Notes: generated by a model from the letters alone, not told the origin. Shown: positions 5,696-56,345, numbered from the stretch's first letter. The stretch: 64,000 nucleotides of DNA from Candidatus Binataceae bacterium (GCA_050011435.1 JBEKJC010000006.1:86754-150753), one strand, 5' to 3'. Numbers and translations are program-made.

Positions 5696-6226
5696 ATGAA
5701 ACGGTTGTTCTGTTCCCTCTTCCTGGCGTTAGCCGCGGCCGGGTGTTTTTATCCACCGACAGCAAAGCCGGTGGCCGACGATAAATACCAACTGACGCTC
5801 GCGCTGCCGTTCGACCTCGCCTGGGATGCGGTGCATACGGTGATCGCCGATAACGGCCTTCACATCATCGCCGAGGATCCGAACAACGGGATTATCGAGA
5901 GCCAGGCGGTCACCGGCTTCGATCTGAAGGACGCCGACTGCGGCGACCTCCGAGGAATCGCGACCAAGTATCACGCCGAGCCGGATGCCGGATCTTCAGC
6001 GGTCTATAATTTCGCGGTGAAGCCTCAGGGCAATGAAGCGAGCGTCGTCAGTCTGCAGGCGGTCTTCACTTCACCGCTGCACGTGCCGCTGCGTACCATG
6101 AGCGAGGAGAATTGCGTTTCACGCGGACTGCAGGAGGCGCGGTTGTTGAAGGAGATCGCGCAGCAGGCGCAGAGGGAGCATCGGCCGGAGTTCAAGCCGC
6201 CGGAGGAGGGGGAAAGGAGATCGTGA
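5696..6226 (+). CDS. Lipoprotein of unknown function
   Basis: MKRLFCSLFLALAAAGC lipobox at an internal ATG (5696). The upstream ORF part lacks coding character. Confidence 0.5.
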   Translation: MKRLFCSLFLALAAAGCFYPPTAKPVADDKYQLTLALPFDLAWDAVHTVIADNGLHIIAEDPNNGIIESQAVTGFDLKDADCGDLRGIATKYHAEPDAGSSAVYNFAVKPQGNEASVVSLQAVFTSPLHVPLRTMSEENCVSRGLQEARLLKEIAQQAQREHRPEFKPPEEGERRS

Positions 6227-6420
6227 AACCTTTGAAAGGTTTCACACTTCCCACAGTGATAGACCCAGTCCCACAGTGATAGACCCAGGTCGGTCTTGCG
6301 GATCGTGTCGATAACACCCTTCGCGGACACGGAAGCGAGGTGCTTTTTTTCAGTGATTGACGAGCAGACCAACAGTCTTGACCTGACTTTTCGGACCGCT
6401 CGCGATGCTCGGGTAAGCGG
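6223..6420. repeat. Intergenic repeat element, copy 1 (hairpin module + tandem 19-bp duplication + inverted box module)
   Basis: GTGAAACCTTTGAAAGGTTTCACACTTCCC hairpin, then 2x CCCACAGTGATAGACCCAG. It also contains the reverse complement of CCCGAGCAnCGCGAGCAGTCCGAAAAGTCAGGTCAAGACTGTTGG, which occurs at 33.8 kb and 10.7 kb. Confidence 0.8.
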
Positions 6421-6544
6421 CCAAGCCCAACGGTAGCGGCGAGCGCAAATGCCTGGAATACGCGCGCAGCATCGCGCGAGATCCTTCGCGGCCTCAGGAT
6501 GACACAAGAAACGCTTTCATCACTAGTGACGACGTGGACGCCCG

Positions 6545-7318
6545 TTAGGTCTCCGACACGCTTGCACTAAAAAGCCACCATCCGACGGCGGCGAGAATTA
6601 TGAAGGCGACGAAGACCGCGACGAGGCTCCAGGTCTGGCCGATCGGTCCAGTGACTTCGTCCTTGCGGATCTGTTCGAGATTGAACACGTATTTTTCACC
6701 CGGCGGCGGACCGTCAACTTTGACGACGCTGGCGCGGCGAAAGAAGGCCTTGCCGCGGTTGAGGTTCATGAAGCCGCCGAGTCGCAAAGCCACGTCGACG
6801 TCGCCGCCTTTCGGGCCGACGCGAAGATAAAAGCCGAGTCTGGTCCAATCATTGGTGCGCTTGAGATCGGCCGACATGATGCTGTCCTCGAGCACGCTGA
6901 TGGTCGCGCCGATGAAGAAGGGCAGGATCTTATCGGTGCGCGCCTCGACGCTGACGTAATACCATCCGGGGCCGAGTGACACGGTCTGCAGCCAGCGCGC
7001 GTCGTTGTCGTGATGAGTGTCGATCTCGACCTCGGCGGGTTCCGCGCCGACGGGCGGGATCCATTTGAATTCCGTAGCCGTGGGCGAGAGGATCCACGCG
7101 TCCACGCGCCATCCGTCGCAGGAGGCGCCCGAGCGGCGAGCGAAGTCGCCGTTGTTGAGCAGGTTGACGTTGGCGGGGCGGGCAACTCGCGGCCCCATTA
7201 TCACAGCCAGCGTCACCGCCGCGATCGTGAGGGCAATACGGACGGCGCCGCAACGCGCCATTGGTCGGATTTTGCGCGCGCCTAAGCGTTCAAAGTTGTA
7301 CTCGTTCCGGCGACTCAT
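6545..7318 (-). CDS. Bitopic membrane protein with CBM4_9/galactose-binding-like domain, translationally coupled to the upstream glycosyltransferase
   Basis: N-terminal TM (IALTIAAVTLAVIM), an NLLNNGDFA..GW motif typical of CBM_4_9 domains, and a C-terminal TM (LVAVFVAFIILAAVGWWLF). Its ATG lies 4 nt after the upstream gene stop. Confidence 0.5.
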   Translation of the reverse strand: MSRRNEYNFERLGARKIRPMARCGAVRIALTIAAVTLAVIMGPRVARPANVNLLNNGDFARRSGASCDGWRVDAWILSPTATEFKWIPPVGAEPAEVEIDTHHDNDARWLQTVSLGPGWYYVSVEARTDKILPFFIGATISVLEDSIMSADLKRTNDWTRLGFYLRVGPKGGDVDVALRLGGFMNLNRGKAFFRRASVVKVDGPPPGEKYVFNLEQIRKDEVTGPIGQTWSLVAVFVAFIILAAVGWWLFSASVSET

Positions 7319-7322
7319 GATG

Positions 7323-10300
7323 TCAGATCCAATTCCGCAGGCCGGGGCCCTCGAGCCACATGCGCGCGTAGTAGCCCGCGCGCGCAATCGGCAGAGCGAT
7401 CCACACTGGCAAGTAGTAGATGAAGATGCCGAACGCGCAGCCGAGGAATGCGAGACAAACAAAGCGGCCGCTGAGTTGTGGTCGTTTCCTGAGCGGAATC
7501 CATGCGAAGGTCAGCAGCAGCACGAACGGCAGGCCCGCGGCCGGGCGCAGGCTTTCAGAGATGAAGCTCGGCTTGAGTGCGACGGCTATATGCCCGAGTC
7601 CGAGGGCGAGCGCCGGCAGCATCGTCAGCAGCACGGCGAAGGTTTCCCACAGCTCGCAGTTGCCTTCCCAGAAATCGGCTAGTATGGCGCCGAGCGCGAG
7701 ATAGCCGAGAAAGATCGAAGGCATGTAGTGATAGAGAAACAGGATGCGGCCGATGGGGATCCAGATTACAAAGTTCGCCAGATAGCCAATCACGAGGAAA
7801 GTGCGGGTCAGGCCAGGACGTTCAAGCGCGCGCACCGCGGTGATCGTCATCGCGGGAATCACGCCCCACCACAGGATCGGATTGCCGGCGCCCCAGATGG
7901 TCGCGACGTCGCCTTTATCGGGGAAATTCTGCCAATAGGCGACCGGCCGCAGCATCAGCGGCCAGCTCCACCAGGGCGAAGCATAAGGATGCGTCGCGGT
8001 CGAGACGCTTTTCTCGTACCACATCACGTCCTTGTAGTAGTGAAAGAGGTCCGCGATGCCGCCCCACCATCCGAGGTAGTAATGCGGCAGAAAGCAGGCG
8101 AGATAGAAGACCGCCGCGATTCCACCCAGCATGAGGACCGCGCCGGCGATGCGCCGATCGCGCACTTTTGCGCTAATCGCTTTGGCTCGCGCGAGTTCCG
8201 GCCGGGCCAGCGTGTAAACGATAAATCCGGTGACCAGCATGAAGGCGATCGCCGGCACGTAAAGTTTCGAACCCAGGCAGAGACCGAGCGAGATACCGAG
8301 AAAGACCAGAGTGCGGCGACGATCGCGCCAATCAGGATTCTGGATAAAGCGGAACATCAGCAAGTAGGAGATCGCGGCGAAGGTCAGGTACACGATATCG
8401 ATCACGGCGATGCGTGAATCGACGAGGAAGAAGCCGTCGGACACGATGAAGCTTGCGGCCAGCGCGGCGGCCAGACGCGAGCGGAACATCCTGCGTCCAA
8501 GCAGATAGGTGACGCCGGCGAGGATGGTGCCCATCGTCGCGACGCCGAGGCGCCAGGCCCATGGAACATCGCCGAAGAGTTTGATGCCGAGCACGATCAG
8601 AATCTTGGCCAGCGGCGGGTGCGGATCGAGAAAGGTCTCGCCGCGCAGGTAATGGCGCGCCTGCCCGACGAAATGAACTTCGTCGAAGACCAGTTCATTG
8701 GGATGGCCGAGGTGCCAGAAGCGCAGGGCGGCGGCGACCGCGAGCACCACGAACAGCACGATGGTATCGGTATGCAGCCACGGAAAAGGGGTGTAGGTCT
8801 CCGCCGGCGGCGGACCGAGTTTGAACCAGCCGTGGCTGGTCGCGATCGGAGTATCGCCAGCCTTGCCTATCGCGGCGACCTTGGCCGCGCTTTTTTTGGG
8901 CGCCCCGCCTTCTTCCTCTGCAGCCATCTCCGCCCCCGCCAGATTCGCGTTTGCCCGGGCCCAGCCGTAACCGGCCACTGCCGCGAACGCAACCAGATTA
9001 ACCAGTGACGCGGCCATCGCAAAGATGTCGCGCGAATCGAGGAAAACCGCCAACTGAAGCGCGTGCAGCACGTACGCAAGATTGAACAGGCAGGTCAGCG
9101 TCAGCAGGACGAAGACCCCCAACATCGCGGGTTCGGCCAGCGCGAGCGGCAACGCAAATACGACGGCGGCATAAAAGTAGCGCTCGTGCATGCGCGGCGC
9201 CAGCATGAAAAATCCAAACATCGCGAGAAACGAGCAGAACAGCAGATTGCGCTGGTCGGGCGCGCGCCACAGGAGCCACGCGACAAACGCATAAAACGGC
9301 ACCAGCGCCGTCATCCCGATGGCGAAATACGATATGCCGAACACGGTTTGCGCGTCCGATTCGCGCAATCCGCCGATCAGCGCCATCAGGTTGAACGCGT
9401 TGACCGAAGTTTCGCGGTAGTAGGCCGCGCCGCTGACATAGAGGTCCGGAAGCCAACTCAACGGATGACCAATCTGGAACGGTGCCGCTCCGATCACCAC
9501 GATAGCCGCGAACGCCAGGATGGAGCGCCACCATTTGCGCGGCTCGAGGCGTAGCAGCGTCCACAGTCCGAGCATCGGCATGAGCGAAAATGCCTGTGGC
9601 TTGATCAGGACCGCGAGCGCGGCGAGACCCCAGCCGACTTCGAATTCGGCTTCGAGCATCATCGCGACGCTGAGAAAGAGCGTCAACGTGAGCGGCGAAT
9701 CGGTCTGTCCCCACACCACGGAATCGAACAGGAGCGCGGGATTGAGTGCGACCAGGGCGAGGGCAATCCAGGCTGAACGCAGGCCCAGCAGACGCCGGAC
9801 GAACAGATACACCGCGAGCGCGAGCGCAAAGTCGCCGATCAGCGGCGGCATCTGGATGATGACTTTGAGGGCCTGGCCGCCGTCGATGCCCAGCGCGCTC
9901 GCCAGCGCGCCCGCAGCCCATAGCGCATAGAGATAGCCCGGCGGGTAGTCGAGAAAGTAGCCTTGCTGATAGGTGCGTGCCGGACCCACGGCGGTGATCT
10001 TAAGCGCCCACGCCTCGTAGGTGCCGAGGTCAACGCTGAAGCCGCTGAACAGCGAGAGCGCAAAGGCTTTGAGCGCGAGCAAGCCGGTGAGCAGCAGCAG
10101 GACGCGCTTCAGATCGCGATCGCGCTCATGCACGAGCGGCCGTGCGAGCAGCCAGAGCGCATAGCACAGCAGCGCCGCCAGGATTGCTCCCGCGACGACG
10201 CCGGCGGGCTTACCGGTCGCCATGGGCGCGGACTGGCCGGCCGCGTAAGCGTACGCGCTGCGCGGCATCGCGAGGGTCGCGAACGCGATCGCCAAACCGA

Positions 10301-10406
10301 TCGCGCTAATCGCGGTTGACGACGCCGCGTTACTCGAACGCATCATCTTGCGAATGCATAATTCTGCCGATGCCAAGGCTTGCGCGGCCGCCTCCTCCTG
10401 CCTCAT
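7323..10406 (-). CDS. Large polytopic membrane protein: tandem fusion of two GT-C-fold glycosyltransferase modules (C-terminal half PMT/GT39-like with FDEVHF motif)
   Basis: 1027-aa continuous ORF, hydrophobic throughout. The C-terminal half has the PMT-family DE motif (FDEVHFVGQARHY) and a PMT_4TMC-like tail. The N-terminal half has a first-loop DYPPGYLY motif, as in GT87/Gpi18-like families. A low-complexity hydrophilic linker (AEEEGGAPKKSAAKVAAIGKAG) joins them. Confidence 0.7.
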   Translation of the reverse strand: MRQEEAAAQALASAELCIRKMMRSSNAASSTAISAIGLAIAFATLAMPRSAYAYAAGQSAPMATGKPAGVVAGAILAALLCYALWLLARPLVHERDRDLKRVLLLLTGLLALKAFALSLFSGFSVDLGTYEAWALKITAVGPARTYQQGYFLDYPPGYLYALWAAGALASALGIDGGQALKVIIQMPPLIGDFALALAVYLFVRRLLGLRSAWIALALVALNPALLFDSVVWGQTDSPLTLTLFLSVAMMLEAEFEVGWGLAALAVLIKPQAFSLMPMLGLWTLLRLEPRKWWRSILAFAAIVVIGAAPFQIGHPLSWLPDLYVSGAAYYRETSVNAFNLMALIGGLRESDAQTVFGISYFAIGMTALVPFYAFVAWLLWRAPDQRNLLFCSFLAMFGFFMLAPRMHERYFYAAVVFALPLALAEPAMLGVFVLLTLTCLFNLAYVLHALQLAVFLDSRDIFAMAASLVNLVAFAAVAGYGWARANANLAGAEMAAEEEGGAPKKSAAKVAAIGKAGDTPIATSHGWFKLGPPPAETYTPFPWLHTDTIVLFVVLAVAAALRFWHLGHPNELVFDEVHFVGQARHYLRGETFLDPHPPLAKILIVLGIKLFGDVPWAWRLGVATMGTILAGVTYLLGRRMFRSRLAAALAASFIVSDGFFLVDSRIAVIDIVYLTFAAISYLLMFRFIQNPDWRDRRRTLVFLGISLGLCLGSKLYVPAIAFMLVTGFIVYTLARPELARAKAISAKVRDRRIAGAVLMLGGIAAVFYLACFLPHYYLGWWGGIADLFHYYKDVMWYEKSVSTATHPYASPWWSWPLMLRPVAYWQNFPDKGDVATIWGAGNPILWWGVIPAMTITAVRALERPGLTRTFLVIGYLANFVIWIPIGRILFLYHYMPSIFLGYLALGAILADFWEGNCELWETFAVLLTMLPALALGLGHIAVALKPSFISESLRPAAGLPFVLLLTFAWIPLRKRPQLSGRFVCLAFLGCAFGIFIYYLPVWIALPIARAGYYARMWLEGPGLRNWI

Positions 10407-10573
10407 CGTACGGCCATCGCCATCGCTCGCGGGTGTTCACCGAAAAAAACGACAACCGCCTCGCGCGCGGAGATAACATATCGCAGGGTGAATGGCAGAT
10501 GAACGGGCGCGGTGCGCGTCTATCCGCGCAGAGGTTGTTGAGGAACTTAAGACCTTTGGTTTCTTTCCGGACA

Positions 10574-10780
10574 CTGAAACCGCATTGAGGTTTCAGACTC
10601 CCCTCTGGTAAAGATGCGGGCTTCGCCCTGTAAAAAGGGGCCGCATAAGATTGCGAGATCGCTCAGCGCCGAACGCATGATACAGGATGCGGGCGATGAT
10701 AGCGGGATCGAGCAGCGCGAGCAGTCCGAAAAATCAGGTCAAGCAAGACTGTTGGGCTGCTGGTCAATCATTGAAAAACG
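10574..10780. repeat. Intergenic repeat element, copy 2 (divergent promoter region)
   Basis: Contains CTGAAACCGCATTGAGGTTTCAGACTCCCC, GATGCGGGCTTCGCCCTGTAAAAA, ATCGAGCAGCGCGAGCAGTCCGAAAAATCAGGTCAAGCAAGACTGTTGGGCTGCTGGTCAATCATTGAAAAACG. Confidence 0.8.
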
Positions 10781-10843
10781 CAACTGGCGGGTGACGCCAT
10801 CGGCGATCTATGATTGTGCCTGCCACAAAGGAGACAAATCCGC

Positions 10844-12341: not shown

Positions 12342-12342
12342 C

Positions 12343-25981: not shown

Positions 25982-26084
25982 CAGATCGGCGCGCGCGCGC
26001 GATCGCGCAGGCGGTGAATTAAGAATGGTCATTACAGGAGGATTGTTCGGAAGAAGGGGATGGTGGTCAAGGAACTCAAAACTT

Positions 26085-26272
26085 TGAGATTTTTCTGAAA
26101 CCTCACAAGATTTCAGACTTCCCGTTTGTAGGATGCGGGCTTCGCCCTGTGAAAACTCCATCATCGTTTGGCGCCACATGACCCGGTTCCCGCACGACTG
26201 AGGCATCCTCCCGAGCATCGCGAGCGTCAATACCTGATCGGAAGTTTGAAACCTCGTGAGGTTTCAATGAAA
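26085..26272. repeat. Intergenic repeat element, copy 3
   Basis: CTGAAACCTCACAAGATTTCAGACTTCCC, GATGCGGGCTTCGCCCTGTGAAAA, CCCGCACGACTGAGGCATCCTCCCGAGCATCGCGAGCGTCAATACCTGATCGG, and the perfect hairpin GAAACCTCGTGAGGTTTC. Confidence 0.8.
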
Positions 26273-26288
26273 TAAAGTTTTGGGTTCC

Positions 26289-26993
26289 TCAACGACTCTC
26301 CCGCTCTTTGGGCGGGCGAAGCGTTTTGATGGTGCCGTCGCGCATCGCGACCAGCACGAGGTCGGCGACGCCGACGAAGAGACCGGTTCCGACCACGCCG
26401 GGGATCGCGAGGAGGTCGCGCTCGAGGCGCGCCGGATTGCGAATCTCGCGCACCGCGCAATCGAGAATGAGGTTGCCGTTGTCGCTGACGTATTCGGCGC
26501 CGCCCGCGCTCAAGCGCAACTTGGGCTTGAGTCCGAGCTTCGCGATCCGGCGCTGGGCAAAGGCCAGCGCGAAGGGCACGACTTCGACCGGAAGATTCCC
26601 GCGCGCGCCAAGGCGCTTGACCAGCTTTTCCTCGCCAATCAGAAAGATGCGCTTGCGCGAAGCGGCCGCGACCACTTTTTCACGAACCATCGCGCCGCCG
26701 AGCCCCTTGATCATGTGCAGGCACGGATCGACTTCGTCGGCACCGTCGAAGTCGGCGGCGAGCGATGGCGCGTCGCGCAATTCCACCAGATCGAGCTTGA
26801 GCGAACGCGCCAGATCCGCACTCGCCTGCGAGGTCGCGACCCCGCGCACTTTCATACCGCTCGCGCCGAGCGCGCGGATAAACGCACTGGCGGCGCGACC
26901 GGTGCCGAGTCCTATGGTCTGCCCATCCTTGACGTAGCGCAGCGCGTGGCGTCCGAGCGCGTCAAGCGCGTCGGGATGGGTCGAAGGCTTCAT
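26289..26993 (-). CDS. rpiA: Ribose-5-phosphate isomerase A
   Basis: GLGTGRAA and KGLGGAMVREK motifs. Confidence 0.9.
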   Translation of the reverse strand: MKPSTHPDALDALGRHALRYVKDGQTIGLGTGRAASAFIRALGASGMKVRGVATSQASADLARSLKLDLVELRDAPSLAADFDGADEVDPCLHMIKGLGGAMVREKVVAAASRKRIFLIGEEKLVKRLGARGNLPVEVVPFALAFAQRRIAKLGLKPKLRLSAGGAEYVSDNGNLILDCAVREIRNPARLERDLLAIPGVVGTGLFVGVADLVLVAMRDGTIKTLRPPKERESR

Positions 26994-32734: not shown

Positions 32735-32794
32735 CGGCCTGAAGAGGGCTCAATAAGATGACGAGATCGCTCTGCGACAGATCGGAAACAGAAT

Positions 32795-32875
32795 GCGGGT
32801 GAGGATCGAGCGGTCGAGCAACGCGAACGTCAATCACTGAAAAAAAAGCGATCGAGCAGCGCAAGCGTCAAAAAT
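32795..32875. repeat. Intergenic repeat element, copy 4 (two box modules, between hisI and hisG)
   Basis: GTCGAGCAACGCGAACGTCAATCACTGAAAAAAAA and ATCGAGCAGCGCAAGCGTCAAAAAT immediately abutting the hisG ATG. Confidence 0.75.
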
Positions 32876-33822: not shown

Positions 33823-33918
33823 TCCCGCACGACTTGGCTATCCACCCGAGCAACGCGAGCAGTCCGAAAAGTCAGGTCAAGACTGTTGGGCTGCTCGTCC
33901 GGCATTGAAACAAGCGGC
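33823..33918. repeat. Intergenic repeat element, copy 5
   Basis: CCCGCACGACTTGGCTATCCACCCGAGCAACGCGAGCAGTCCGAAAAGTCAGGTCAAGACTGTTGGGCTGCTCGTCCGGCATTGAAACAAGCGG. Inverted copy at 6355-6410. Confidence 0.8.
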
Positions 33919-34288
33919 GTCGCGCACTTGGCGGACGCCGCTCGGTTGCGAGGTCGTTGTTTGGAACTCAAAGCCCAGGGCCGCAGGTGCCGAGGGAGTC
34001 AGGCGTTCCCTGTGTTATCCGTCCGCCGGTGAGGGAGATCACCCCGGCAGCCATGCGGTCTGCGGTCGCATGGCCTGTCGCAGGCGGGTTTGTATGGGGA
34101 CCCGCCGGCGATGGTGCGGCGCGGCATTGGCTCTCCGCGGCCCCGGGCAACTCTAACCGCGCGCCGGCTGAATTCGAGCTTGATGCGCTTGGGTCTTGCG
34201 AAAATGGCCGTGAGCGCGAATCGATTCAGGCGGCCAGGCGCCGTATTGGCGAGCGCTTGCGACGCTCGCCAATACGGGTTACTGACAC

Positions 34289-36063: not shown

Positions 36064-36540
36064 TAGTCTCCTCCTCTGAGCAAATAAGTCGCTCGTGTCA
36101 TCCCCCGACGACACGCCGAATGCCCTGCGAATAAACGACTCGCCCTGGCGTTTTACCCCCGCAACCAGTCGAGCCTTGCGCCGCGCCCCTGGGGCCGGCG
36201 CCCTCCCCGCTTCATGTTTCGAAACGGGACGGTACTACGCGATTCAGAGAAACTACGAGTTGGTTCTTATAAAAACCGGCGAGACTTTACAATAGGTGCG
36301 CAACTAATTTTTAAAAATTAGTTTTCTCTGCAAATTTGACCGCCTGGGCCCGCCACAGCATGAATGCGGGAGATGAAACAGAGACTCCCCGCGAACTCTA
36401 CGGAAAGCGCATCCGGACGATCCGGCAAATTCTTATTGCCGCCCGGTTACTACTGCGTGAATTTAAATCCTACCTGTCATTAAGCGCGAAATGCTCGTGC
36501 GGGAACTGAACCAGGCCGATCGAATTGGTAAAGTGCACAT

Positions 36541-36580
36541 AAAAAATGGCCTCCTCAATAAGCTGAGGAGGCCGTTTTCA
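36541..36580 (-). terminator. Rho-independent terminator downstream of the enoyl-CoA hydratase gene (bidirectional-capable)
   Basis: Perfect GC-rich hairpin GGCCTCCTCA-ataa-GCTGAGGAGGCC flanked by an A6 tract on the + strand (U6 on the - strand transcript) and TTTT on +. It begins 17 nt after the stop at 36598. Confidence 0.8.
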
Positions 36581-36597
36581 AGGTCACCGAAGTTGGG

Positions 36598-41581: not shown

Positions 41582-42022
41582 ATGCGTGACAGGCTCCGCC
41601 GATCTCAGGAAGGTTTCACCCTGATCGAACTCATGGTGGTCATCTTGATCATCGGACTGCTGGCCACGATCGTGGTACAGAACCTCAAGGGCGCGACCGA
41701 CAAGGCCAAACGAATCAAGGCGCAGGCGGATATCTCGGCGTTCAAGACTGCGCTCGATCGCTATTACCTCGACAACGGCGCATACCCTTCAAGCGACCAA
41801 GGACTGGCGGCGTTGGTCAGCGCACCGCAAAACGGCAAGGTGCCGGCCGATTATCCTTCTGGCGGATACATCGAAAAAATTCCGAACGATCCGTGGGGCA
41901 ACCCATACGTCTATCAGAGCGACGGCGACAATTACGTGCTGAAGTCGTACGGCGCCGATGGAGTCGAGGGCGGCACCGGGAAGAACGCGGATATTGACGG
42001 CAGCAGCAACGGCGGCGGCTAG
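41582..42022 (+). CDS. gspG: Major pseudopilin GspG
   Basis: Prepilin leader + GFTLIELMVVILIIGLLA. The GspG-specific DPWGNPYVY calcium-binding region. Confidence 0.9.
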   Translation: MRDRLRRSQEGFTLIELMVVILIIGLLATIVVQNLKGATDKAKRIKAQADISAFKTALDRYYLDNGAYPSSDQGLAALVSAPQNGKVPADYPSGGYIEKIPNDPWGNPYVYQSDGDNYVLKSYGADGVEGGTGKNADIDGSSNGGG

Positions 42023-42087: not shown

Positions 42088-42645
42088 ATGCGCGAAACAC
42101 GACCGCCGCGAGCTTATCGACGCTTCCAGCGCGGCTTCACGTTGCTCGAACTGGCGGTCGTGATGTTCCTGATCGGGCTCGTGATGACGATCGCGATGCC
42201 CTACTTCGGCAGCATGCAGACCTCGCAGATGCGCAGCGAAGCGCGCCGCCTGGCCAGCCGCGCCAACTATCTTTATCAGGAGGCGGGGGCGCAGAAGGTG
42301 ATCCTGCGCCTGACCTTCGATCTCGCCAATAACGGATACTTCGCCTCGCGCTTAGACCCGTTCGCGGTCAAGCCCGCGTTCCTTCCGGAAAATGGACCGG
42401 CCGGCGTGCGCGTCGTGATGCCCGCGGGTGTCTGGATTCGCGATGTCACGGTCGAGGGGCTGGGGACCGTGCGGCGCGGACTCGTGAGCGCCCAGTTCTA
42501 TCCGGGCGGTTCCGTGGACGCGACTCTGATTCATCTGGCCGACAGCAAGGGCGAGGTCTTCACGCTGGCGATCGATCCATTCAGCGGCCACGTTTCGATC
42601 GTTCGGGGCGACGTGGGTCCCACACGCGGCGGGGCCTCCCAGTGA
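42088..42645 (+). CDS. gspH: Minor pseudopilin GspH-like
   Basis: RGFTLLELAVVMFLIGLV prepilin N-terminus at an internal ATG (42088). Confidence 0.75.
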   Translation: MRETRPPRAYRRFQRGFTLLELAVVMFLIGLVMTIAMPYFGSMQTSQMRSEARRLASRANYLYQEAGAQKVILRLTFDLANNGYFASRLDPFAVKPAFLPENGPAGVRVVMPAGVWIRDVTVEGLGTVRRGLVSAQFYPGGSVDATLIHLADSKGEVFTLAIDPFSGHVSIVRGDVGPTRGGASQ

Positions 42646-44834: not shown

Positions 44835-46298
44835 ATGGGGCTGCGAATCATGGCGCTGGAGTTGGCCGGCGAGCGGGTGCGCGCGGCGATTGCCGATCGC
44901 TCCTGGAACTCGCTCGAGCTGATCGGCGCGTGGGAGCAGCAACGCGGGCAGGACGAAGCCGACCTCGTGCCGGCGATCATGCGGATCATCGACGCGGCCG
45001 GCCATCCCGATATCCTGGTCTCGGCGCTGCCGGGCGAGTTCGTCGCCAAGCGGGTGCTCGCGCTGCCCTTTAGCGATCGGCGCCGGCTCGCGCAGGTGGT
45101 GCCATTCGCGCTCGAGGAGCATCTGCCGTTTCCGGTTGACGACGCCGCAGTCGCCTTCGCGCGCGTCGGCCGCGAGGATGCCAAGACCCTCGTCATCGCG
45201 GCCATCGCCCGCAAAGCGGATGTGCAAAGGCATCTCGAATTGCTGGCACGCGCGGGACTCGATCCCAAGGTCGTCACGCTCGGGACGCTCGCGTTGGCGG
45301 GCTTGCTGGCGCGTGCGCGCAACGGCGCGGGCGGCGCTCATCTGGTGGTCGACATCGATCACGCTTCGACCTCGATGGTGCTGATCGACTCGCGCGGCAC
45401 GCCACGGGCGGTGCGCACCGTCAGCCGCGGCATCGATCCGCACGACGGCGACGCCGCCCTGCCCATACCCGCAGCCGCGGTGATCCTGGGCGCGGTGCGC
45501 CAGACCCTGCTCGCGCATGGCTCGGACGAGGCGCCGCCCGATCTCGTGTTGACCGGCGCGGCCGCGGCCACGCCCGCGGTTCGCGAACAGATCGGCGGCG
45601 GACTGGCCGTGCCGATCCATTACGTTGACGAATTCGATTGCTCGTCGTTCTTCGCCGGCAGTCGCACGGAGCCGGTCGCCTTCGCGCCGTGTCTCGCGAT
45701 GTTGCTGGCCGAGGCCCCCAGCAAGCCGCTCGAGCTGCTGAATTTCCGCCAGGGCGAATTTGCCTTTCGCGGACTGACGGGCCGGCTGGGTCCGCTGCGG
45801 CTCACGACCACGCTGGCCGCGGTGGCAATCGTTCTTGCGTTGCTGAATTTCCTGATCGGGGTCGCGGTCAACGCTCGGCAGTTGCATCTGTTGAATCGCC
45901 AGATCGCGGAGGTCACCGCACCCGCTCTGGGTGACACGGACCCGGCCATGGCGCAGACCGCGCTGAAGCAAAAGATTGCCGCGATGCGCAAGCGGCTGCA
46001 TCTGATGGGCGGTAACCTCGGCCACGGGTCGCCGCTCGACGAGCTGCTCGCGCTTTCCCGCGCGATTCCGCCCGGAGTGCCGATGCAGGTGAACGACCTC
46101 GTGGTGGACGACAGCGGACTCAAGATTGAAGGCACCGCGGATTCCTTTGCCACGGTTGACCAGGTCAAAAAGGCGCTCGAACGGACGCCGGAATTCGGAT
46201 CGATCCAGGTCGAACATGCGACCGCCGGTTCGGATCCCGGCAAGATCGATTTCCGACTCAACGTGACGCCGCGGGAAAGCGCGACGGGAGCCGACTAG
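44835..46298 (+). CDS. gspL: Type II secretion system protein GspL (PilM-like cytoplasmic actin-fold domain + TM + periplasmic domain)
   Basis: MGLRIMALELAGERVRAAIAD actin-like N-domain, a single TM (TTLAAVAIVLALLNFLIGV), and a periplasmic C-domain. GGAGA SD. Confidence 0.75.
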   Translation: MGLRIMALELAGERVRAAIADRSWNSLELIGAWEQQRGQDEADLVPAIMRIIDAAGHPDILVSALPGEFVAKRVLALPFSDRRRLAQVVPFALEEHLPFPVDDAAVAFARVGREDAKTLVIAAIARKADVQRHLELLARAGLDPKVVTLGTLALAGLLARARNGAGGAHLVVDIDHASTSMVLIDSRGTPRAVRTVSRGIDPHDGDAALPIPAAAVILGAVRQTLLAHGSDEAPPDLVLTGAAAATPAVREQIGGGLAVPIHYVDEFDCSSFFAGSRTEPVAFAPCLAMLLAEAPSKPLELLNFRQGEFAFRGLTGRLGPLRLTTTLAAVAIVLALLNFLIGVAVNARQLHLLNRQIAEVTAPALGDTDPAMAQTALKQKIAAMRKRLHLMGGNLGHGSPLDELLALSRAIPPGVPMQVNDLVVDDSGLKIEGTADSFATVDQVKKALERTPEFGSIQVEHATAGSDPGKIDFRLNVTPRESATGAD

Positions 46299-47871: not shown

Positions 47872-48201
47872 AAAGATCATTTCGCCCGAATAGGCATGCG
47901 CGCCTATCCTCGCGCACTTGGTCAACCGCCGCCGCTCCGTCACACACAGACTTTAGAAGCTGAAGCCGGGCCAAGCCGCCGCGCAAACATCTTTGCGCGC
48001 GGCGCCCTACAAAAAGGAGTACACTGTTTCGAAGTGAGTGCAGGGGGGCCGGATTCCGCAGCCCGCACAGGGCGAGTCCCGAGCCGAAAATCTTTTTTTA
48101 CAAAACAAACCCATTCCATGAGCCTTGCCGCGAGGTTTCCGTCGAGACACAATCGCTATCGGCGCATTTCGGCGCGATTTTCACCCGATCTTGGAGTCAT
48201 T

Positions 48202-49206
48202 ATGGCCGCAGCCGCAACGAAATTGGGACTGGAGATGTCGATTGCCTCAACCGCATTCGCCGAGTGTCCGCGCCTCGCCCGTGAGGCCGAAGATCGCGGC
48301 TACGCGTCGATCTGGGTGCCCGAGGTGAGCGGCCCCGACGCCTTCGTCACGCTGGCGACGATCGCGCAGGCGACGACCAAGGCCGACCTCGCGACCGGGA
48401 TCGTGCCGATTCAGATTCGCACGCCCGGTGCGATGGCGATGGGCTTTCTAACCCTCAACGAGCTCTCGGGCGGACGCGCGATCGCGGGCCTCGGCGTTTC
48501 GAGCCCGGTGATCGTTGAACGCTGGCACGGCGCTGCCTACCACAAGCCAATCACGGCGATGCGCGAGTGCGTCACGATCATGCGCCAGCTCTTCACCGAA
48601 GGACGCTGCAAATTCGAGGGCAAGGTCTATCGCAGCGACTTCCGCCTCGGGTTCCAATCGAAATATCCGCCGCCGCGAATCTACCTGGCCGCGCTGAATC
48701 CGCCGATGCTGCGGCTGGCTGGCGAACTCGCCGACGGCGTGCTGCTCAACTATTCGCCCCCCGAAGCGATTCCGCCGATGATCGCGGAGATTCGCGCCGG
48801 GGCGGAAAAGGCCGGACGCAAGCTCGCCGATATCGACGTCGGCATTTACCTGCGGATGTGCATCACGGAGGACGAGGCGGCCGCCGTGAGTGCGTTCAAG
48901 CGCGAACTCGCGACCTACGCCTTCGTCGATCAGTACAACGCCATGTTCGAGCGCTACGGACTGCAGGACGAGTTCGCCGAGGTGCGCCGGCTGTGGCGCG
49001 AGGGCAAGCGCGACGACGCCCCCAACGCCTTGAGCGATGCGGCGGCGCGGCGCCTCGCGGCGTTCGGACCGCCTGCGGCCGGGCGGAAGTTCGTCGAGAG
49101 CTTTCGCGCCGTCGGCGTGAATCATCCGGTGATTTTTCCGATCGGGCCGGGACGCTCCTTAATGCAGCACTTCACAACCACCGTGGACGCACTCGCCGGC
49201 GCCTGA
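48202..49206 (+). CDS. LLM-class (luciferase-like) flavin/F420-dependent oxidoreductase
   Basis: TIM-barrel LLM motifs (ASIWVPE, GLGVSSPVIVERWHG). GGAG SD before the ATG at 48202. Confidence 0.8.
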   Translation: MAAAATKLGLEMSIASTAFAECPRLAREAEDRGYASIWVPEVSGPDAFVTLATIAQATTKADLATGIVPIQIRTPGAMAMGFLTLNELSGGRAIAGLGVSSPVIVERWHGAAYHKPITAMRECVTIMRQLFTEGRCKFEGKVYRSDFRLGFQSKYPPPRIYLAALNPPMLRLAGELADGVLLNYSPPEAIPPMIAEIRAGAEKAGRKLADIDVGIYLRMCITEDEAAAVSAFKRELATYAFVDQYNAMFERYGLQDEFAEVRRLWREGKRDDAPNALSDAAARRLAAFGPPAAGRKFVESFRAVGVNHPVIFPIGPGRSLMQHFTTTVDALAGA

Positions 49207-50913: not shown

Positions 50914-50937
50914 GTGGAGGCACCGTCTTGAGAAAAA

Positions 50938-51613: not shown

Positions 51614-51780
51614 CGTGGGCTGTCGCTACTGAAAATAACCACCGAAACTGAGCTCTAGCGGAAACCACGTCTGAGCCGTACCGCCTATGACAACGACACG
51701 GCTCGTCATCGCAACTACCTGATCTCCCGCGATTCCCCGCCGAACCCCACGCATAAGTCTCTCGCGCGCTTTTCGTCAGG

Positions 51781-52740
51781 TTACGGCTCCGCCTTGAAGA
51801 TTCCCGCCGCACCCTTGTATTGGCTCGCGCGGTTGAGGTCCATGAAACTATAAATTCCGGGCTCGTTGACGGTGAATTCGAACACGGCGCCGTCGCTCGG
51901 CGCCACTTCGAAGGTGCTGATGCCGTGCATCGCATTGGCCGGATTGCCACCGCGATAGACGGTGCTGAACAGGACGCCGGCGACATGCCACGATGAGGTC
52001 ATATTGGGTCCGGCGTTGACAAAGAATACCCGCACCAGTTTGCCGACCTTCAACTTAATTGGATGGTCGCGGTCATACTTGTTCATCGCGCCGTCAAAGA
52101 CGATGAAATCGGGCTGCGCCGCAATCATTTTCGTATGGTCGCCGGTGATTAAACCCCGCTTGTCGGGCAAGCCGTAAAACTCGCTCTGCACCAGCGTCAC
52201 TTCCTGGGCGTCGCCGTCCGGCCATCCATCCTTCGGCTCAACGATCATCATCCCATACATGCCGCTGGCAATATGGTCGAGAATCGGCGGCGCGTAGCAA
52301 GTGTAAGCAAACACGCCCGGAACGGTGGCCCGGAACGTATAGCCGACCGGCTTGATCGGATCCCCGGCAAAATGTGAGGGGGCAACCTGCGCCGCGTGAA
52401 CGTTGATGCCGTGCGCGTCGCCAGTGTGATTGGCCAGAGCGATAGTCACGTCGTCGCCTTCACGCGCCTTGAGGACCGGCCCGGGCACGGTACCGTTGAA
52501 GGTCGTCGCGTTGTAGGTCACGCCAGTGCCAAGGCGGACGGGCTTGCTTTCGACGGTGAGCGTGAACTTTTGATCAGCCGCATCGGCCCGGAGCGAAAAT
52601 CCCGCCACGACCAGCATAACGGCGGCCGCCGCGGCGAGCGCGCGACCGACGAAATGCTTTGCAGTGTGCGCCATGAGGCGTCCCGCAATCCCATCCCCGT
52701 TATCGCAACGGCGCAGTGAATCCGAAGTCAGTAGGGCCAT
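51781..52740 (-). CDS. NirK-like two-domain cupredoxin (copper nitrite reductase homologue with apparently degenerate type-2 Cu site)
   Basis: HGINVHAA (cf. NirK HNVDFHAA) and YTCYAPPILDHIASGMYGMMIV (cf. [23 protein letters not shown]). The T1 Cu ligands H/C/H/M are retained. The T2 His next to the Cys is Thr, and the catalytic Asp of HNVDFH is Asn. Confidence 0.7.
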   Translation of the reverse strand: MALLTSDSLRRCDNGDGIAGRLMAHTAKHFVGRALAAAAAVMLVVAGFSLRADAADQKFTLTVESKPVRLGTGVTYNATTFNGTVPGPVLKAREGDDVTIALANHTGDAHGINVHAAQVAPSHFAGDPIKPVGYTFRATVPGVFAYTCYAPPILDHIASGMYGMMIVEPKDGWPDGDAQEVTLVQSEFYGLPDKRGLITGDHTKMIAAQPDFIVFDGAMNKYDRDHPIKLKVGKLVRVFFVNAGPNMTSSWHVAGVLFSTVYRGGNPANAMHGISTFEVAPSDGAVFEFTVNEPGIYSFMDLNRASQYKGAAGIFKAEP

Positions 52741-53193
52741 GTAGTTACCTCTTCCCGAGGCAGCGCAAGCTGCGTGAATACTTAGGTCATTGCTAGTCTT
52801 CCGGAATCCTAATCGAAAGGCGAGACCCGCGCGATGACGACAGGCGCACATACCCCAACTCGCGCTTGCGACCGCGTCGTTGTGCATCGCAGTTTAACGG
52901 GTGGCGCCGATCGAGACAGGGGGACTGATGCTTTTGGACGCAATAGCAAAGCTCTCGAGTCACAGAAATACTAATTTCAATGACAAATATATCTTAATCA
53001 ATGGAACATTTTATGCTGCGAAATGCCTTGGACCTATCGGGTTGCGCGACCGAAGGGAGCCAAGCATTTGCTTTGACTCCCCTCGTAGTCAAAGTTGCTC
53101 AGTTCTGTGATATAGGCTGAGATTAAGGACACGAGGGCCGCGGTAATGGTGAGGCCCGCGGTCGCCCGCGCCAATTTAGGGGGCGGGAAGTAT

Positions 53194-54681
53194 ATGAAAG
53201 AGTCCTCGGCGGCTCTGGTTCTCATTGCTGCTCTTGCAACTACGCAGTTCGCAGTGGGCTGCGTGGGGATCGAATCCGCATCGACGAGATCTACGGTCGG
53301 CGCGCCTGCGGTATCTCCGAACCGCCTCGAATTAGAAGGTTTTTCGATTCTCCCTCCGCAAGGCGACGGATGGCACCGACTGTCGGGTAGTGGAGTCTCG
53401 CGCCTGCTCCTGGGCTTCGACGTACTCTACGTCAAGGCAGTCAGCCCAACCTCATTCGCCCATGCATATGTCGTCGCGCATCGAGTTCCCGGCGACTCCG
53501 ACAATCCGAAAATCCTGGAAGATTCGTTCACGCGCTTCATCGAATCGAGAGGCACGTCGTCGGTAATCGTACGGAGCAGCCGCGATCCGCCCAACTGTCT
53601 GCGGTGGGAAATGGCGCACGAAGCTCGGGACCGATTTCAGGGGGTTCGGTTCGATGGTGAGACGGCGCGCGTATCGCAATATCGGGGTTATCTTTGCTCG
53701 CATCCCGACGACCCTGCATACGTAATCGAAATCGGGTACTTCGACACAGTTTTAATGGGCGCGGCGAAGCCGGCGATCGCTGAGGGCGAAGCGTTCCTTC
53801 ACGGCGTTGCCTTGATGCCACTCGGCGTTAAACTGCGCCAGTATTCGGCGGGTGAAAAGCCCCGCGGAGTGGCCTTGGCAGGCGGCGAGCTTTGGCTAAC
53901 TGAGGAGGACGTGGGGACGGTTGTGCGAGTCGAGCCCGCAAGCGGCTCAATCGCCGCAAGCATTGCGGTGGGAGTGAGGCCTGAGGGACCGGCGGCAGGG
54001 CCGGACGCGGTATGGGTGCCGAACTGGGCAAGCGATTCAGTCTCGCGCATTGACACGCAATCGAGGCAGGTCGTCGCAGCGATTGCGGTCGGGCAGGGGC
54101 CGACGGACGTGGCCGTGAGCGGAACGTCAGTGTGGGTCGCCAATGAGAAGAGCAATTCGGTCTCACGCATCGACGCGATTACCAATCACGTCACGGCGAC
54201 CATCGTGACTGGTGACAGGCCAGTAGCAATCGCCGCCAGCGAGGCGGCGGTTTGGGTCGAAGATTTCGGCACCAACAGGATCTGGCGGATCGATCCGCGG
54301 ACCAATCAGGTCGTGGCAACGATCCGCGTGGGTCAAGGCCGCCACTTGATTGCGATCGCGCCGGACGGCGACGCAGTATGGGCGTCAAACTCTCGAGAGC
54401 GGTCAGTATCGAGAATCGACCCGTCAACCAATCGGGTTATAGCCACCGTCGCGGTCGGGCGTACGCCGATCGGACTCGCGGCAACGGACGGTGTGGTGTG
54501 GGTCGCGAACTTTGGCGACAGCACGGTCTCAAGGATCGATTCGCAGACCAACCTGGTCGTCGGAAAACCCATTCCCGTAGGAGAAAATCCATTTCTGATC
54601 GGCGCTAATGACAAGACGGTCTGGGTACTCAGCGTATGGGACTGGGATCTCGGAACGCTCTCCCGGATCACGGATTTTTGA
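53194..54681 (+). CDS. Lipoprotein with novel N-terminal domain and C-terminal YVTN-family beta-propeller repeats
   Basis: Lipobox FAVGC. About 6 repeats of ~40 aa (VSRID..TN.VVATI.VG..P..VAV....VWVAN). Confidence 0.7.
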   Translation: MKESSAALVLIAALATTQFAVGCVGIESASTRSTVGAPAVSPNRLELEGFSILPPQGDGWHRLSGSGVSRLLLGFDVLYVKAVSPTSFAHAYVVAHRVPGDSDNPKILEDSFTRFIESRGTSSVIVRSSRDPPNCLRWEMAHEARDRFQGVRFDGETARVSQYRGYLCSHPDDPAYVIEIGYFDTVLMGAAKPAIAEGEAFLHGVALMPLGVKLRQYSAGEKPRGVALAGGELWLTEEDVGTVVRVEPASGSIAASIAVGVRPEGPAAGPDAVWVPNWASDSVSRIDTQSRQVVAAIAVGQGPTDVAVSGTSVWVANEKSNSVSRIDAITNHVTATIVTGDRPVAIAASEAAVWVEDFGTNRIWRIDPRTNQVVATIRVGQGRHLIAIAPDGDAVWASNSRERSVSRIDPSTNRVIATVAVGRTPIGLAATDGVVWVANFGDSTVSRIDSQTNLVVGKPIPVGENPFLIGANDKTVWVLSVWDWDLGTLSRITDF

Positions 54682-54805
54682 GCCGTGGCCAGACGACGGA
54701 CTGCGGATCGAGCGAACGATCCTTGCCGGACGGATGTGTGCGTGATACTGGCGTGCTGAGACCGGTGCCGGCCAGGCCGGACCCAAATCCCGCTCCGAGG
54801 TTGCA

Positions 54806-56099
54806 ATGGTTAAAGTAATACTTCAGCTTTATCCGGTAATCCCCGCCAAGAATGAAGAAGAACGCGCGGCCCTGAGGCCGATCGGACGCAACCGCGAACG
54901 CTACCAGGAAACGCTCACCGGCTGGCTATCATTCGCGCAGCCGACAACCTGGGACTCTGGGGCGTCGCCACCATCGAGCATCATTTCTGGTCCGAGGGCT
55001 ACGAATGCGGCCCCAATCCGGGGGTCCTCGACGCCTACTGGGCCGCGATCACGAAGAACGTGCGGGTCGGGCAGATGGGTTATGTGATGAGCACGCAGAA
55101 CTCGATGCGCGTCGCCGAAGAGACCGCGATTATCGACCACTTGACGCGCGGGCGCTGTTTCGTGGGCTTCGCGCGCGGCTACCAGTCGCGATGGACCAAT
55201 GTTATCGGGCAGCATCTCGGCACTCGTGCGACGATTTCGCCGACGGCCGGCGGCGGCGATGAAAACCATATGTTCGCGGGCGAAAAGCAACAGAGCGACG
55301 TTGACGACGACGCCGTCAATCGCCGCATCTTCGAGGAAGAGGTCGATATCGTCGTCAAAGCGTGGACCGAGGACAGTATCTCGTACAAGGGCGAGTCGTG
55401 GCAGATACCGTTTCCGTTCGACAAGGGCGTTGACGATTGGCCGCTGGCGCGGGCGGGCGTGACGGGCAGATTCGGTGCCCACGGCGAGGTCGGCGCTGAC
55501 GGCAACATCCACCGCATCAGCGTGGTACCGGCGCCCTACACGCGGCCGCATCCGCCGGTATTCGTGGCGACGGCGGGTAGCCCTGAAAGCGCGCAATATG
55601 CGGGCCGCCGCGGCTTCATCCCGCTTTACTTCACGAGCCTCAAAAATGCGATCGCGCTGGGCACGGAGTATCAGCAGGCGGCGACTGCCAGCGGCCATAA
55701 TTTCGCGTTCGGGCAGAACCAGGCCGTCGTGCGCATGCCCCATCTGGGCGCGACGATGGAGGATGCGAAGCGCTCGCTGATCGATTACGACGGCGACATT
55801 TTCCGCAATTTCTACGCCTCGATGGGCGGCGGAAGATGGATACCAGCGACGTTTACAAATCGACCACGCAATTCGGCATGTGGGCGGTCGGAACGGTTGA
55901 CGACGTGCGGCGGCAATTGGTCGAGGAGTGGAAGAAGTTTCCAGCCGAGTATCTGACGCTGATCTATCATTACGCGCAGATGCCGAAGGAAGTCGTCATC
56001 CGCAATCTCGAACTCTTCATGCGCGAGATCAAACCCGCACTCGACGAACTGACGCCCTACACCGAGAAAGAGACGGCGTCTGCCGCGGCGGGCCGCTAG
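54806..56099 (+). pseudogene. LLM-class flavin/F420-dependent oxidoreductase gene with two frameshifts (near 54915-54925 and 55830-55840)
   Basis: Three consecutive ORFs in frames 2, 1, 2. LLM N-terminus (MVKVILQLYPVIP...RERYQETL). The middle part (LGLWGVATIEHHFWSEGYE...) is open from 54856. The C-terminus (GTVDDVRRQLVEEW...LELFMREIKPAL). Both shifts fall in G/C runs. Confidence 0.7.
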
Positions 56100-56149
56100 G
56101 CGCGGCGTAAACGAGCGACGGAGAAAAAGGGAAATTTGTTGAGGAGCGC

Positions 56150-56345
56150 GGGACTTTGCGGCCTGCCCGAGCATCGCGAGCGTCAACTATGATGAGGTTT
56201 CAGACTTCCCTTTTGTTGGGCACGGGAAATACCCGCACGGCTGCGGTTGCGACGCAGCCGAGACGCATTGGCAATCATGACGCGCGGGACTTTGCTGCAT
56301 GCCCGAGCGTCGCGAGCGTCAATTATGATCGGTTCCGAGCGAAAA
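56150..56345. repeat. Intergenic repeat element, copy 6 (tandem partial duplication)
   Basis: GCGGGACTTTGCGGCCTGCCCGAGCATCGCGAGCGTCAACTATGATGAGGTTTCAGACTTCCC, followed by a second GCGCGGGACTTTGCTGCATGCCCGAGCGTCGCGAGCGTCAATTATGATCGG. Confidence 0.8.

Follow-up and report, generated by a model that had tools for sequence, protein, structure and literature searches.

The 64,000-nucleotide (nt) window analyzed here, a single stretch of DNA from an uncultured Binatia-type bacterium (Candidatus Binataceae bacterium, GCA_050011435.1, JBEKJC010000006.1:86754-150753; Binataceae belong to the candidate phylum Binatota), carries at six intergenic loci a set of short sequence modules that recur in both orientations. 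With a probability of about 0.7, we regard these loci as members of a clade-restricted family of short, noncoding, nonautonomous mosaic elements resembling repetitive extragenic palindromic (REP) sequences and bacterial interspersed mosaic elements (BIMEs) or miniature inverted-repeat transposable elements (MITEs). An initial annotation of the window had proposed such a REP/BIME/ERIC-like or MITE reading, and it is supported by the intergenic location of the units, their restriction to one clade in whose genomes they recur, the differing occupancy (filled or empty) of orthologous spacers, the presence of both orientations, and the inverted doublets, as well as by perfect hairpins with variable loops, modular mosaics, nesting of units at hairpin apices, and breaks in assemblies. 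As far as we could find, this is the first sequence-level description, with a usable grammar of units, of a REP/BIME-like family in the uncultured phylum Binatota; a known type of repeat is thereby documented in a further lineage, with no change to any general principle.

Self-similarity was assessed by BLAST of the window against itself, and motif counts were compared with those in dinucleotide-preserving shuffles. Every module quoted in the initial annotation was read at its place in all six loci, and both tests gave significant results. The segments 6355-6410 and 33845-33895, which had been described as near-perfect reverse complements, lie in a self-BLAST pair (6345-6414 versus 33913-33844, reverse complement) with 88.6% identity over 70 nt and an E value of 1e-18. 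Further pairs were 6346-6411 with 10778-10709 (E 2e-15), 10709-10776 with 33847-33910 (E 3e-14), 56146-56193 with 56282-56329 (92%, E 4e-12), 10574-10636 with 26095-26155 (E 3e-7), and 26051-26122, inverted, with 26308-26240 (E 1e-6); apart from two palindromes and periodic repeats within one open reading frame (ORF), the window showed no other significant self-matches. The box motif CCGAGCANCGCGAGCG was found 10 times with up to two mismatches, against 1.77 ± 1.46 expected, a count that none of 100 shuffles reached; eight of these matches lie in the flagged loci and two within genes, at chance level. The hairpin flank GGTTTCAGACTTCCC, again with up to two mismatches, occurred five times, against 0.08 expected from shuffles.

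The window holds eight box cores, four complete hairpins and one half hairpin, two copies of the module originally numbered iii, and three of module iv. Among the 43 intergenic regions, a census made against other Binatia loci detected repeats in 6, exactly the six flagged, where they account for 671 of 8,069 intergenic nt; all are strictly intergenic, with none in genes. The adjoining 18.6 kb of the same contig contained one further box unit, directly after a TAG stop codon, and no transposase with matching ends. The density is thus about 7 loci per 83 kb of unbiased sequence. About one locus per 10 to 12 kb is usual for REP and Correia-type families, so that one per 10 kb is an ordinary density for such elements, and the initial annotation overstated the case in calling the family dense and its copy number high.

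When the box motif was scanned against one genome per GTDB species, multicopy intergenic matches were found, among the matches listed, only in five metagenome-assembled genomes (MAGs): "Deltaproteobacteria bacterium BP6.bin67," "Candidatus Binataceae bacterium SMAG_U5149," and three labeled "uncultured delta proteobacterium" (MFD05513, MFD02416, and MFD09495). BP6.bin67 shares ∼87% nucleotide identity with the window in coding DNA. Most of the listed matches from other genomes were single, lay in coding DNA of unrelated GC-rich genomes, and were at chance level. The motifs are thus not confined to the window, and their signal survives shuffled controls. No match to Rfam (Rfam 15, gathering thresholds) was obtained anywhere in the window, none to the units was found in plasmids or viral contigs, and the searchable literature held neither a match nor a report of such a family for Binatota; nothing we found contradicts the earlier statement that the family is previously undescribed.

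A grammar of units was derived from the window pooled with 18 loci of the five MAGs (comparison loci, contigs, and strains are numbered with the prefix L). The hairpin (HP) unit, ∼75 to 80 nt long, reads cTTaCCAAn-GGGAAGT-CTGAAACCTC-loop-GAGGTTTCAG-AAAAA-nnTAnAGTTTTGnGTTCCTCAACAACTTC, in which the two segments around the loop form the palindrome; we call the side opposite GGGAAG the END. Module ii of the initial annotation is real as a hairpin, but it is only the first third of this unit, which runs ∼45 nt beyond the earlier limit, to ...AGTTTTGnGTTCCTCAACAACTTC. Module iii, here M3, is a 24-nt hairpin that sometimes precedes the HP unit, always 9 to 10 nt upstream of its GGGAAG end and in the same orientation, giving a long form of that unit. 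The box unit, ∼55 to 65 nt, reads (GTTCCCGC)nnGACTTGGCCnCnnnC-CCGAGCATCGCGAGC-GTCAAT, often followed by CAYTGAAAAA; its leading segment is referred to as PRE. It occurs with or without a 36-nt hairpin, M4, placed exactly between GCGAGC and GTCAAT, and module iv was therefore not an independent module but a box unit with M4 inserted. A second box subtype has another leader (M5) and the variant core TCGAGCAGCGCGAGC.

The units recur in the window as follows.

6223..6252, minus strand: HP unit, GTG variant; the plus strand reads GTGAAACCTTTGAAAGGTTTCAC (6223-6245) and then ACTTCCC.
6345..6428, minus strand: box unit with the 36-nt insert, made up of PRE GGGCTTGGCCGCTTA (6428-6414), box core CCCGAGCATCGCGAGCG (6414-6397), M4 hairpin (6397-6362), and tail GTCAATCACTGAAAAAA (6361-6345).
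10535..10603, minus strand: HP unit with an unusually long spacer; the plus strand reads GTTGAGGAACTT (END, reverse complement), a 27-nt spacer, CTGAAACCGCATTGAGGTTTCAG, and ACTCCCC.
10613..10636, minus strand: M3; the plus strand reads GATGCGGGCTTCGCCCTGTAAAAA, with a small GGGC/GCCC hairpin.
10645..10778, plus strand: second-type box unit, made up of an M5 leader (ATAAGATTGCGAGATCGCTCAGCG...GATGCGGGCGATGATAGCGGGA), box variant TCGAGCAGCGCGAGC (10708-10722), M4 hairpin (10723-10762), and tail GTCAATCATTGAAAAA (10763-10778).
26051..26308, no strand assigned: composite inverted doublet (locus C) between the rpiA stop codon and the glycerate kinase start, with HP units at 26067-26123 and 26239-26293, END sides outward; its interior holds M3 (26132-26155) and a PRE+box unit (26188-26232, plus strand).
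32752..32875, plus strand: hisI-hisG spacer with an M5-like leader, box 1 TCGAGCAACGCGAACG (32814-32829), tail GTCAATCACTGAAAAAAAA, and box 2 TCGAGCAGCGCAAGCG (32852-32867), whose truncated tail runs into the hisG ATG (32876).
33823..33913, plus strand: box unit in the hisG 3' region (site E), made up of PRE TCCCGCACGACTTGGCTATCCA, box CCCGAGCAACGCGAGC (33845-33860), M4 insert (33861-33896), and tail-like GTCCGGCATTGAAACAA.
56138..56210, no strand assigned: rearranged HP unit; the minus strand reads GGGAAGTCTGAAACCTCA (56210-56193), a reverse-complement PRE+box unit (56192-56146), and the END remnant TCCTCAACAA (56147-56138).
56282..56329, plus strand: second PRE+box unit, GCGCGGGACTTTGCTGCATG-CCCGAGCGTCGCGAGCGTCAATTATGAT, whose end is ∼30 nt short of the opposite-strand clpP stop codon.

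The gene contexts given earlier agree with Pfam and the gene calls of the collection: the loci lie between rpiA and the glycerate kinase gene, between hisI and hisG, after hisG, in one divergent spacer (flanked by genes for a PMT-family glycosyltransferase and a hydrolase), and within two convergent pairs (in one, a 176-amino-acid [aa] gene meets a 257-aa gene; in the other, clpP meets a luciferase-like gene).

The modules are joined in recurrent ways. The junctions box-GTCAA-N7-HP, M3-N9-HP, and HP-END-N20-PRE-box were all found repeatedly, with box-GTCAA-N7-HP, M3-N9-HP, and PRE-box-tail recurring across six genomes; the M3-HP junction at 10613..10636 was also seen in L016, L033, L049, L057, and L066, and the M5 plus TCGAGCAGCGCGAGC arrangement at L049 404-480. 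The hairpin apex is itself a junction at which box units join HP units, both in the window compared with strain L160 and in L066 and L035. In three other Binatia MAGs, the loops of HP hairpins (L008 7338-7645, L043 5112-5230, and L050 5823-5909) carry another small repeat. This loop repeat (CAC..AGGCGAGCTyGCGAGCCGAGCTAACGAGTCTGCGAGGTGCG) occurs in either orientation, sometimes in tandem, and is absent from the window.

The core of the HP unit is a palindrome of 22 to 24 nt whose 10-bp stem was 95.9% paired across 34 distinct copies. Compensatory changes were found at the base of the stem (CG, GC, AU, or UA) and at its top (CG, UA, or AU), and the signal collapsed in controls with slid partners (34 copies). 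Loop length ranges from 2 to 5 nt, which excludes a site of fixed spacing for a dimeric protein on duplex DNA and indicates a hairpin in single-stranded DNA or RNA; a dimeric transcription factor site (LexA-like or similar) at the 10-bp inverted repeat was rejected likewise, as the distance between half sites varies by 1 to 3 nt. Wobble (G-U) pairs are distributed 5 to 5 between the strands, without preference. GGGAAGT flanks the hairpin on one side and an A-tract on the other, and no U-tract follows the stem in either orientation (AAAAA one way, ACTTCCC the other), on which ground an intrinsic terminator was rejected; a terminator scan of window positions 24 to 38 kb, which found a canonical terminator at 36548-36573, flagged none of loci C, D, and E. 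The M4 hairpin is significantly stable only on the box-forward strand (z scores of −2.2 to −2.45, versus −0.07 to −0.6 on the other; for the copy in 6345..6428, −2.44 on the minus strand versus −0.60). Folded as RNA of the transcribed strand, the whole of locus C forms a single 271-nt hairpin of −112 kcal/mol (z −6.7).

The GTG-variant HP copy at 6223..6252 lacks the A-tract and the ...GTTCCTCAAC extension, and the TGA stop codon of the 176-aa gene (5696-6226, plus strand) falls within its hairpin, in GTGAAACC; GTG variants with compensatory closing pairs were also found at L043 5011-5049 and L050 3237-3275. We regard a prepilin-like reading of the GTG hairpin (V/M-K-P-L-K-G-F-T-L-P) as coincidental, since L043 does not keep the frame and the window copy reaches a stop after 18 codons. 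Adjoining this hairpin, at 6253-6289, the 20-nt unit ACAGTGATAGACCCAGTCCC stands in tandem (1.85 copies).

The units occupy characteristic positions relative to genes, as counted for 35 HP and 27 box copies using codon-usage gene calls; the counts are approximate, and a few of the calls were erroneous. Of the 35 HP copies, 19 have the END side ∼0 to 25 nt from the stop codon of an opposite-strand gene; in the remaining copies it faces a gene start, 0 to 70 nt away, and the GGGAAG side always points toward the interior of the spacer. Both orientations had been claimed for the family, and in codirectional gene pairs the HP orientations number ∼10 versus 11, so that neither direction relative to transcription is preferred. 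Twelve of the 35 HP copies are members of END-outward inverted doublets; such doublets occur at 26051-26308 in the window and at L028, L032 (two), and L050. Of 27 box units, 14 have convergent genes on their two sides and 22 point at the 3' end of an other-strand gene, and a box tail or END adjoins a stop codon at a distance of 0 to 25 nt. At locus C, the rpiA stop codon TGA (26289-26291, minus strand) lies within the GTTGAGG of the right-hand END, and a sigma-70-like TTGACC-17-AACAAT overlaps the left END and faces the glycerate kinase gene.

Genes located just downstream of forward HP units (glxK, gatA, hisG, and truB) have no GGAGG ribosome-binding site but C/T-rich leaders, such as caatcctcctgtaATG and tatcccccaATG, at 26005-26052 in the window and at L066 ∼2660-2700, L083 ∼2460-2500, and L008 ∼6620-6680; these leaders could reflect short or leaderless transcripts beginning near END.

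Comparison of relatives revealed rapid turnover. In a sample of 80 hisG loci from metagenomes (HisG identity, 66 to 100%), the stretch from the hisG stop codon to a conserved terminator-like hairpin contains a box unit with M4 in the window (site E), a box unit without M4 in BP6.bin67 (L016 6408-6485; a precise 36-nt difference), a forward HP unit in L081 (98% HisG identity), a reverse HP unit in L083 (93%), a decayed box unit in L113 (95%), and no unit in L084 and L085 (91 to 93%). No unit was found in 263 kb from relatives with less than 85% HisG identity. Among hisI-hisG spacers, the shortest has 14 nt and no repeats, and the longest has ∼225 nt with HP, M3, and box; that of BP6.bin67 holds one box plus tail, with the hisG TTG start within the tail, and strain L002 keeps eight extra tail bases (CATCACTG). 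Strain L160, whose ClpP is identical to that of the window, has an intact HP unit downstream of clpP at the position of the rearranged HP unit; in the window, a 47-nt reverse box unit takes the place of 34 nt of it and is joined to the remainder at the hairpin apex. The units also interrupt assemblies: among contigs from the clpP and rpiA look-ups (L165 to L167 and L169), several short metagenome contigs end within repeats, and L169 jumps to another locus precisely where an HP copy has its END.

Two other features of the hisG 3' region were observed. A conserved hairpin (GCGGCGTCGCGCACTTGGCGGACGCCGC, followed by TCGGTT) at 33920-33950 is probably the hisG terminator, and the repeat units located between the hisG stop codon and this hairpin would therefore belong to the hisG 3' untranslated region (UTR). 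Beyond it, at 33972-34170, lies a noncoding block of ∼190 nt (GCCCAGGGCCGC...GCGGCCCCGGGCAAC) that six relatives, with HisG identities as low as 91%, share almost unchanged, whereas the adjoining spacer is not conserved. RNAalifold predicted a closing stem and four hairpins, with four pairs showing compensatory change; the block had no Rfam match at E ≤ 1, and its z scores were −0.53 on the plus and −2.38 on the minus strand. We regard the block as a candidate for an unclassified structured RNA.

The units thus spread, decay, and recombine within intergenic DNA, and they settle where insertion is tolerated: just past stop codons, between convergent genes, and in operon spacers. As to how they move, solo palindromic units dominate, no target duplications are visible, and loop lengths vary, and for these reasons we favor propagation on a single-stranded hairpin, as for REP sequences and REPINs, on which a single-copy HUH tyrosine transposase (RAYT) acts in trans; a RAYT-like enzyme would mobilize the units, and their modules would in turn be reshuffled as copies recombine homologously or undergo gene conversion. 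Because the units lie in UTRs, it is nearly certain that they are cotranscribed. Hairpins and doublets in mRNA would serve as 3'-end protectors or as RNase III-type processing sites, with RNase III-type cleavage of the rpiA-glxK doublet a plausible side effect at the RNA level, and END may occasionally offer an outward −35 box, such as the TTGACC upstream of glxK. We infer that such RNA-level effects are side effects rather than the reason for the existence of the family.

Several observations weigh against this interpretation. A tblastn search with an E. coli RAYT (YafM) query, which is a weak test, found no RAYT gene in ∼1 Mb of partial genome sequence, and the 5' GTAG typical of REP sequences is absent from the HP flanks; membership in a REP-RAYT system is therefore not established. 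Target-site duplications, which the initial annotation had suggested looking for, were visible neither at doublet ends nor at the M4 indel nor at the L160/window replacement, although diverged flanks could hide short ones (the M4 indel shows at most an offset 4-nt GTCC), and at the compared sites a clean insertion boundary could not be defined. The terminal inverted repeat of a single HP unit is only the 6- to 7-nt, low-complexity GGGAAGT/ACTTCCC. Strains that share the flanking proteins, retrieved in six look-ups for contigs with identical flanking proteins, have the called genes at loci A, B, and C identically spaced, the exceptions to this uniformity being the 8-nt indel of L002, the variant strain L160, and the locus-switching contig; movement is therefore read from differences between species and not from polymorphism within a population. 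Finally, PRE+box at site E shows no differences in 46 nt between the window and BP6.bin67, while the flanking spacer differs by ∼18% and coding DNA by ∼13%. This frozen unit and the stability of M4 on one strand only hint at selection on some copies.

The principal alternative, which we consider possible but distinctly less probable, is that these are classical cut-and-paste MITEs, with HP-END as the terminal inverted repeats of 200- to 300-nt elements such as 26051-26308, mobilized by the DDE transposase of a full-length insertion sequence (IS) elsewhere in the genome, and with solo units as products of decay or recombination. The END-outward doublets at several loci do have inverted HP-END arms of 60 to 70 nt, END is consistently the outer boundary beside genes and carries outward promoter-like hexamers, and the stop codon sometimes found in or directly beside END or the tail would be expected if TA-rich or stop-like sites were targeted in a GC-rich genome. 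However, no doublet shows a target-site duplication, two thirds of the HP copies stand alone and match the doublet copies in conservation, the interiors of doublets differ wholly between copies, and the sequence examined (∼280 kb of the clade) contained no transposase gene with matching ends (GAAGTTGTTGAGGAAC...).

Rather unlikely, in our view, is an unrecognized recombinase that is neither RAYT nor DDE, forming a self-nesting, hairpin-targeting system that would integrate at the HP apex and place units beside stop codons; by analogy with the bridge RNAs of IS110 and the omega RNAs of TnpB, the box unit with its semivariable PRE might be the remnant or carrier of a guide-like RNA. Such a system would explain the apex junctions, the exact position of the 36-nt hairpin in the box, and the box copy frozen between species. 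We give a similarly low chance to a guide-like or otherwise functional box in general, at which the identical site E unit, the strand-specific M4, and the TTG start of BP6.bin67 hisG within a box tail hint.

It is a little less likely still that the copies are host-selected RNA elements, each working in its own transcript, whether as a small RNA, as a translational element, or as a 3'-UTR hairpin for stabilization or processing, and alike because they share a protein or RNase partner. All copies are at transcribed, UTR-like positions, and those after hisG follow its stop codon and precede the terminator-like hairpin; compensatory changes preserve the HP stem; in all three window copies, the only strand on which M4 is stable is the one sense to the neighboring gene; one box unit is identical in two species 13% apart in coding DNA; and the locus C doublet would give ∼60 bp of double-stranded RNA in the rpiA-glxK transcript. 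Yet the HP unit has no preferred orientation relative to transcription and no G-U strand asymmetry (5 versus 5), an A-tract or ACUUCCC follows its stem where a terminator would have a U-tract, no Rfam family matches, and orthologous spacers of close relatives carry different units or none. The same observations (no Rfam match, no terminator signature, no HP orientation bias, and rapid turnover) tell against the structured small-RNA family that the initial annotation had considered.

A very improbable reading is that the copies are dispersed regulatory DNA sites of one regulon, the box being a transcription factor site and the reverse HP unit a promoter. The E. coli promoter of the sigma-E/extracytoplasmic function (ECF) type is GGAACTT-N16-TCTGA, and the reverse HP unit reads GGAAC-N17/18-(T)CTGA, with a spacer between GGAAC and CTGAAACC of 16 to 19 nt in 19 of 24 copies (mode, 18); the GAGGAAC and TAnAGT segments are, moreover, conserved without RNA pairing. 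Against this, the spacer ranges from 12 to 27 nt, the −10 element would fall within a perfect hairpin of variable loop length, the putative promoter mostly fires away from the gene's stop into a convergent gene or other repeats, the box lacks dyad symmetry and in 22 of 27 copies is directed at the 3' end of a gene, and the turnover seen among close relatives speaks against a conserved regulon. Functional readings are weaker as primary explanations, given the variable spacing, the rapid turnover, and the absence of orientation bias.

The remaining candidates were rejected. A small ORF, seen in L008, where the reverse strand reads GAGGAAC-N7-ATG with a 34-codon frame through hairpin and box, fails because other copies have no start codon and the spacer between HP and box, which measures 6, 7, 8, or 9 nt, does not preserve the frame. 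Reading of the sequences gave no convincing match to an integration host factor (IHF) site (WATCAANNNNTTR) in the tail or A-tract region, and sigma-54 and sigma-70 promoter readings of PRE plus box do not fit in their spacings. An integron attC site (RYYYAAC...GTTRRRY) was excluded, as the doublets have GTTGAGG...CCTCAAC, in which the core sites stand in reversed order whichever strand is read; the loci are flanked by housekeeping genes that belong to conserved operons.

Set against known systems, the mosaic family of the Binatia-type bacterium comes close to the REP, REPIN, and BIME sequences of E. coli and Pseudomonas: short, high-copy extragenic palindromes at gene 3' ends, between convergent genes, and in operons, at a comparable density (∼1 per 8 to 12 kb), in lineage-specific families, and frequently in inverted doublets with a predicted larger hairpin. 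BIMEs combine a palindromic unit with other short motifs in mosaic arrays, and the Binatia family likewise consists of palindromic units and a few conserved motifs in recurrent arrangements; the likeness is one of architecture only, with no sequence relation to the E. coli motifs. A REPIN is an inverted REP doublet predicted to form a hairpin in single-stranded DNA or mRNA (PMC3116915, PMC3337134), and RAYTs are present in 24% of species (PMC5581495). The Binatia units differ from REP sequences in having no sequence similarity to them, a GGGAAGT rather than a GTAG flank, a perfect 10-bp stem, a greater length with a 45-nt conserved nonpalindromic extension, no RAYT gene to which they can be linked, and a host phylum of their own, Binatota.

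Other repeat families share some of these traits. The Correia elements of Neisseria are 100 to 300 nt long with inverted ends, are inserted beside genes or in the spacers separating them with a density of ∼1 per 10 kb, are cotranscribed as long RNA hairpins, and in some cases carry outward promoter hexamers. These traits are likewise present in the Binatia family, which we compared with Correia elements and with the MITEs ERIC, RUP, and Nezha; unlike these, it shows no TA or other target duplication, occurs mostly as single "ends," and has heterogeneous doublet interiors. The pneumococcal BOX element (boxA-boxB(n)-boxC) is a modular noncoding intergenic repeat whose boxes occur in variable combinations. 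The Binatia family is also a modular intergenic repeat of a few sequence-defined boxes, but order and orientation are fixed in BOX, whereas Binatia units occur in both orientations, nested, and with halves swapped at the apex, and there is no sequence similarity. IS1397/ISKpn1 and the IS110/IS621 family target the apex of repeated REP palindromes. The Binatia HP apex is likewise a specific joining site for other DNA, with the difference that the pieces joined are noncoding units of 36 to 60 nt or tandem arrays, with no transposase.

The family has consequences for the host and for those who assemble its genome. Long hairpins are added within the conserved operons rpiA-glxK, hisI-hisG, and gatC-gatA, where mRNA processing is likely affected. 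The units break or misjoin short-read metagenome assemblies, and they could serve as lineage markers for binning. The apex junctions and the precise 36-nt indel provide a tractable case for module exchange in mosaics.

Some further features of the window and its contig were noted. A perfect 22-nt palindrome lies at 36302-36323, in the spacer 36116-36597, and a 37-nt palindrome (86% matched) lies at 4656-4692; both are unrelated to the family. So are the repeats with a period of 123 or 126 nt (TCGGTGAACCAC..CCGTCGGGxCC) that a minus-strand ORF at 62753-63949 contains five or six times and that look like a repeat-domain protein. Outside the window, ∼7.6 kb from its position 1 on the same contig (L175 17654-18850), is a gene for a tyrosine integrase (Arm-DNA-bind_3, Phage_integrase), beside which there are no HP or box units. 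ARAGORN called a 98-nt tRNA-Trp at 48987-49084, within the long ORF 47896-49206, which makes the call doubtful. A 36-nt motif recurs near the 5' ends of three neighboring ORFs (41625-41660, 42146-42181, and 45829-45864); the motif probably specifies N-terminal segments of the prepilin type, in a gene cluster for secretion or pili.

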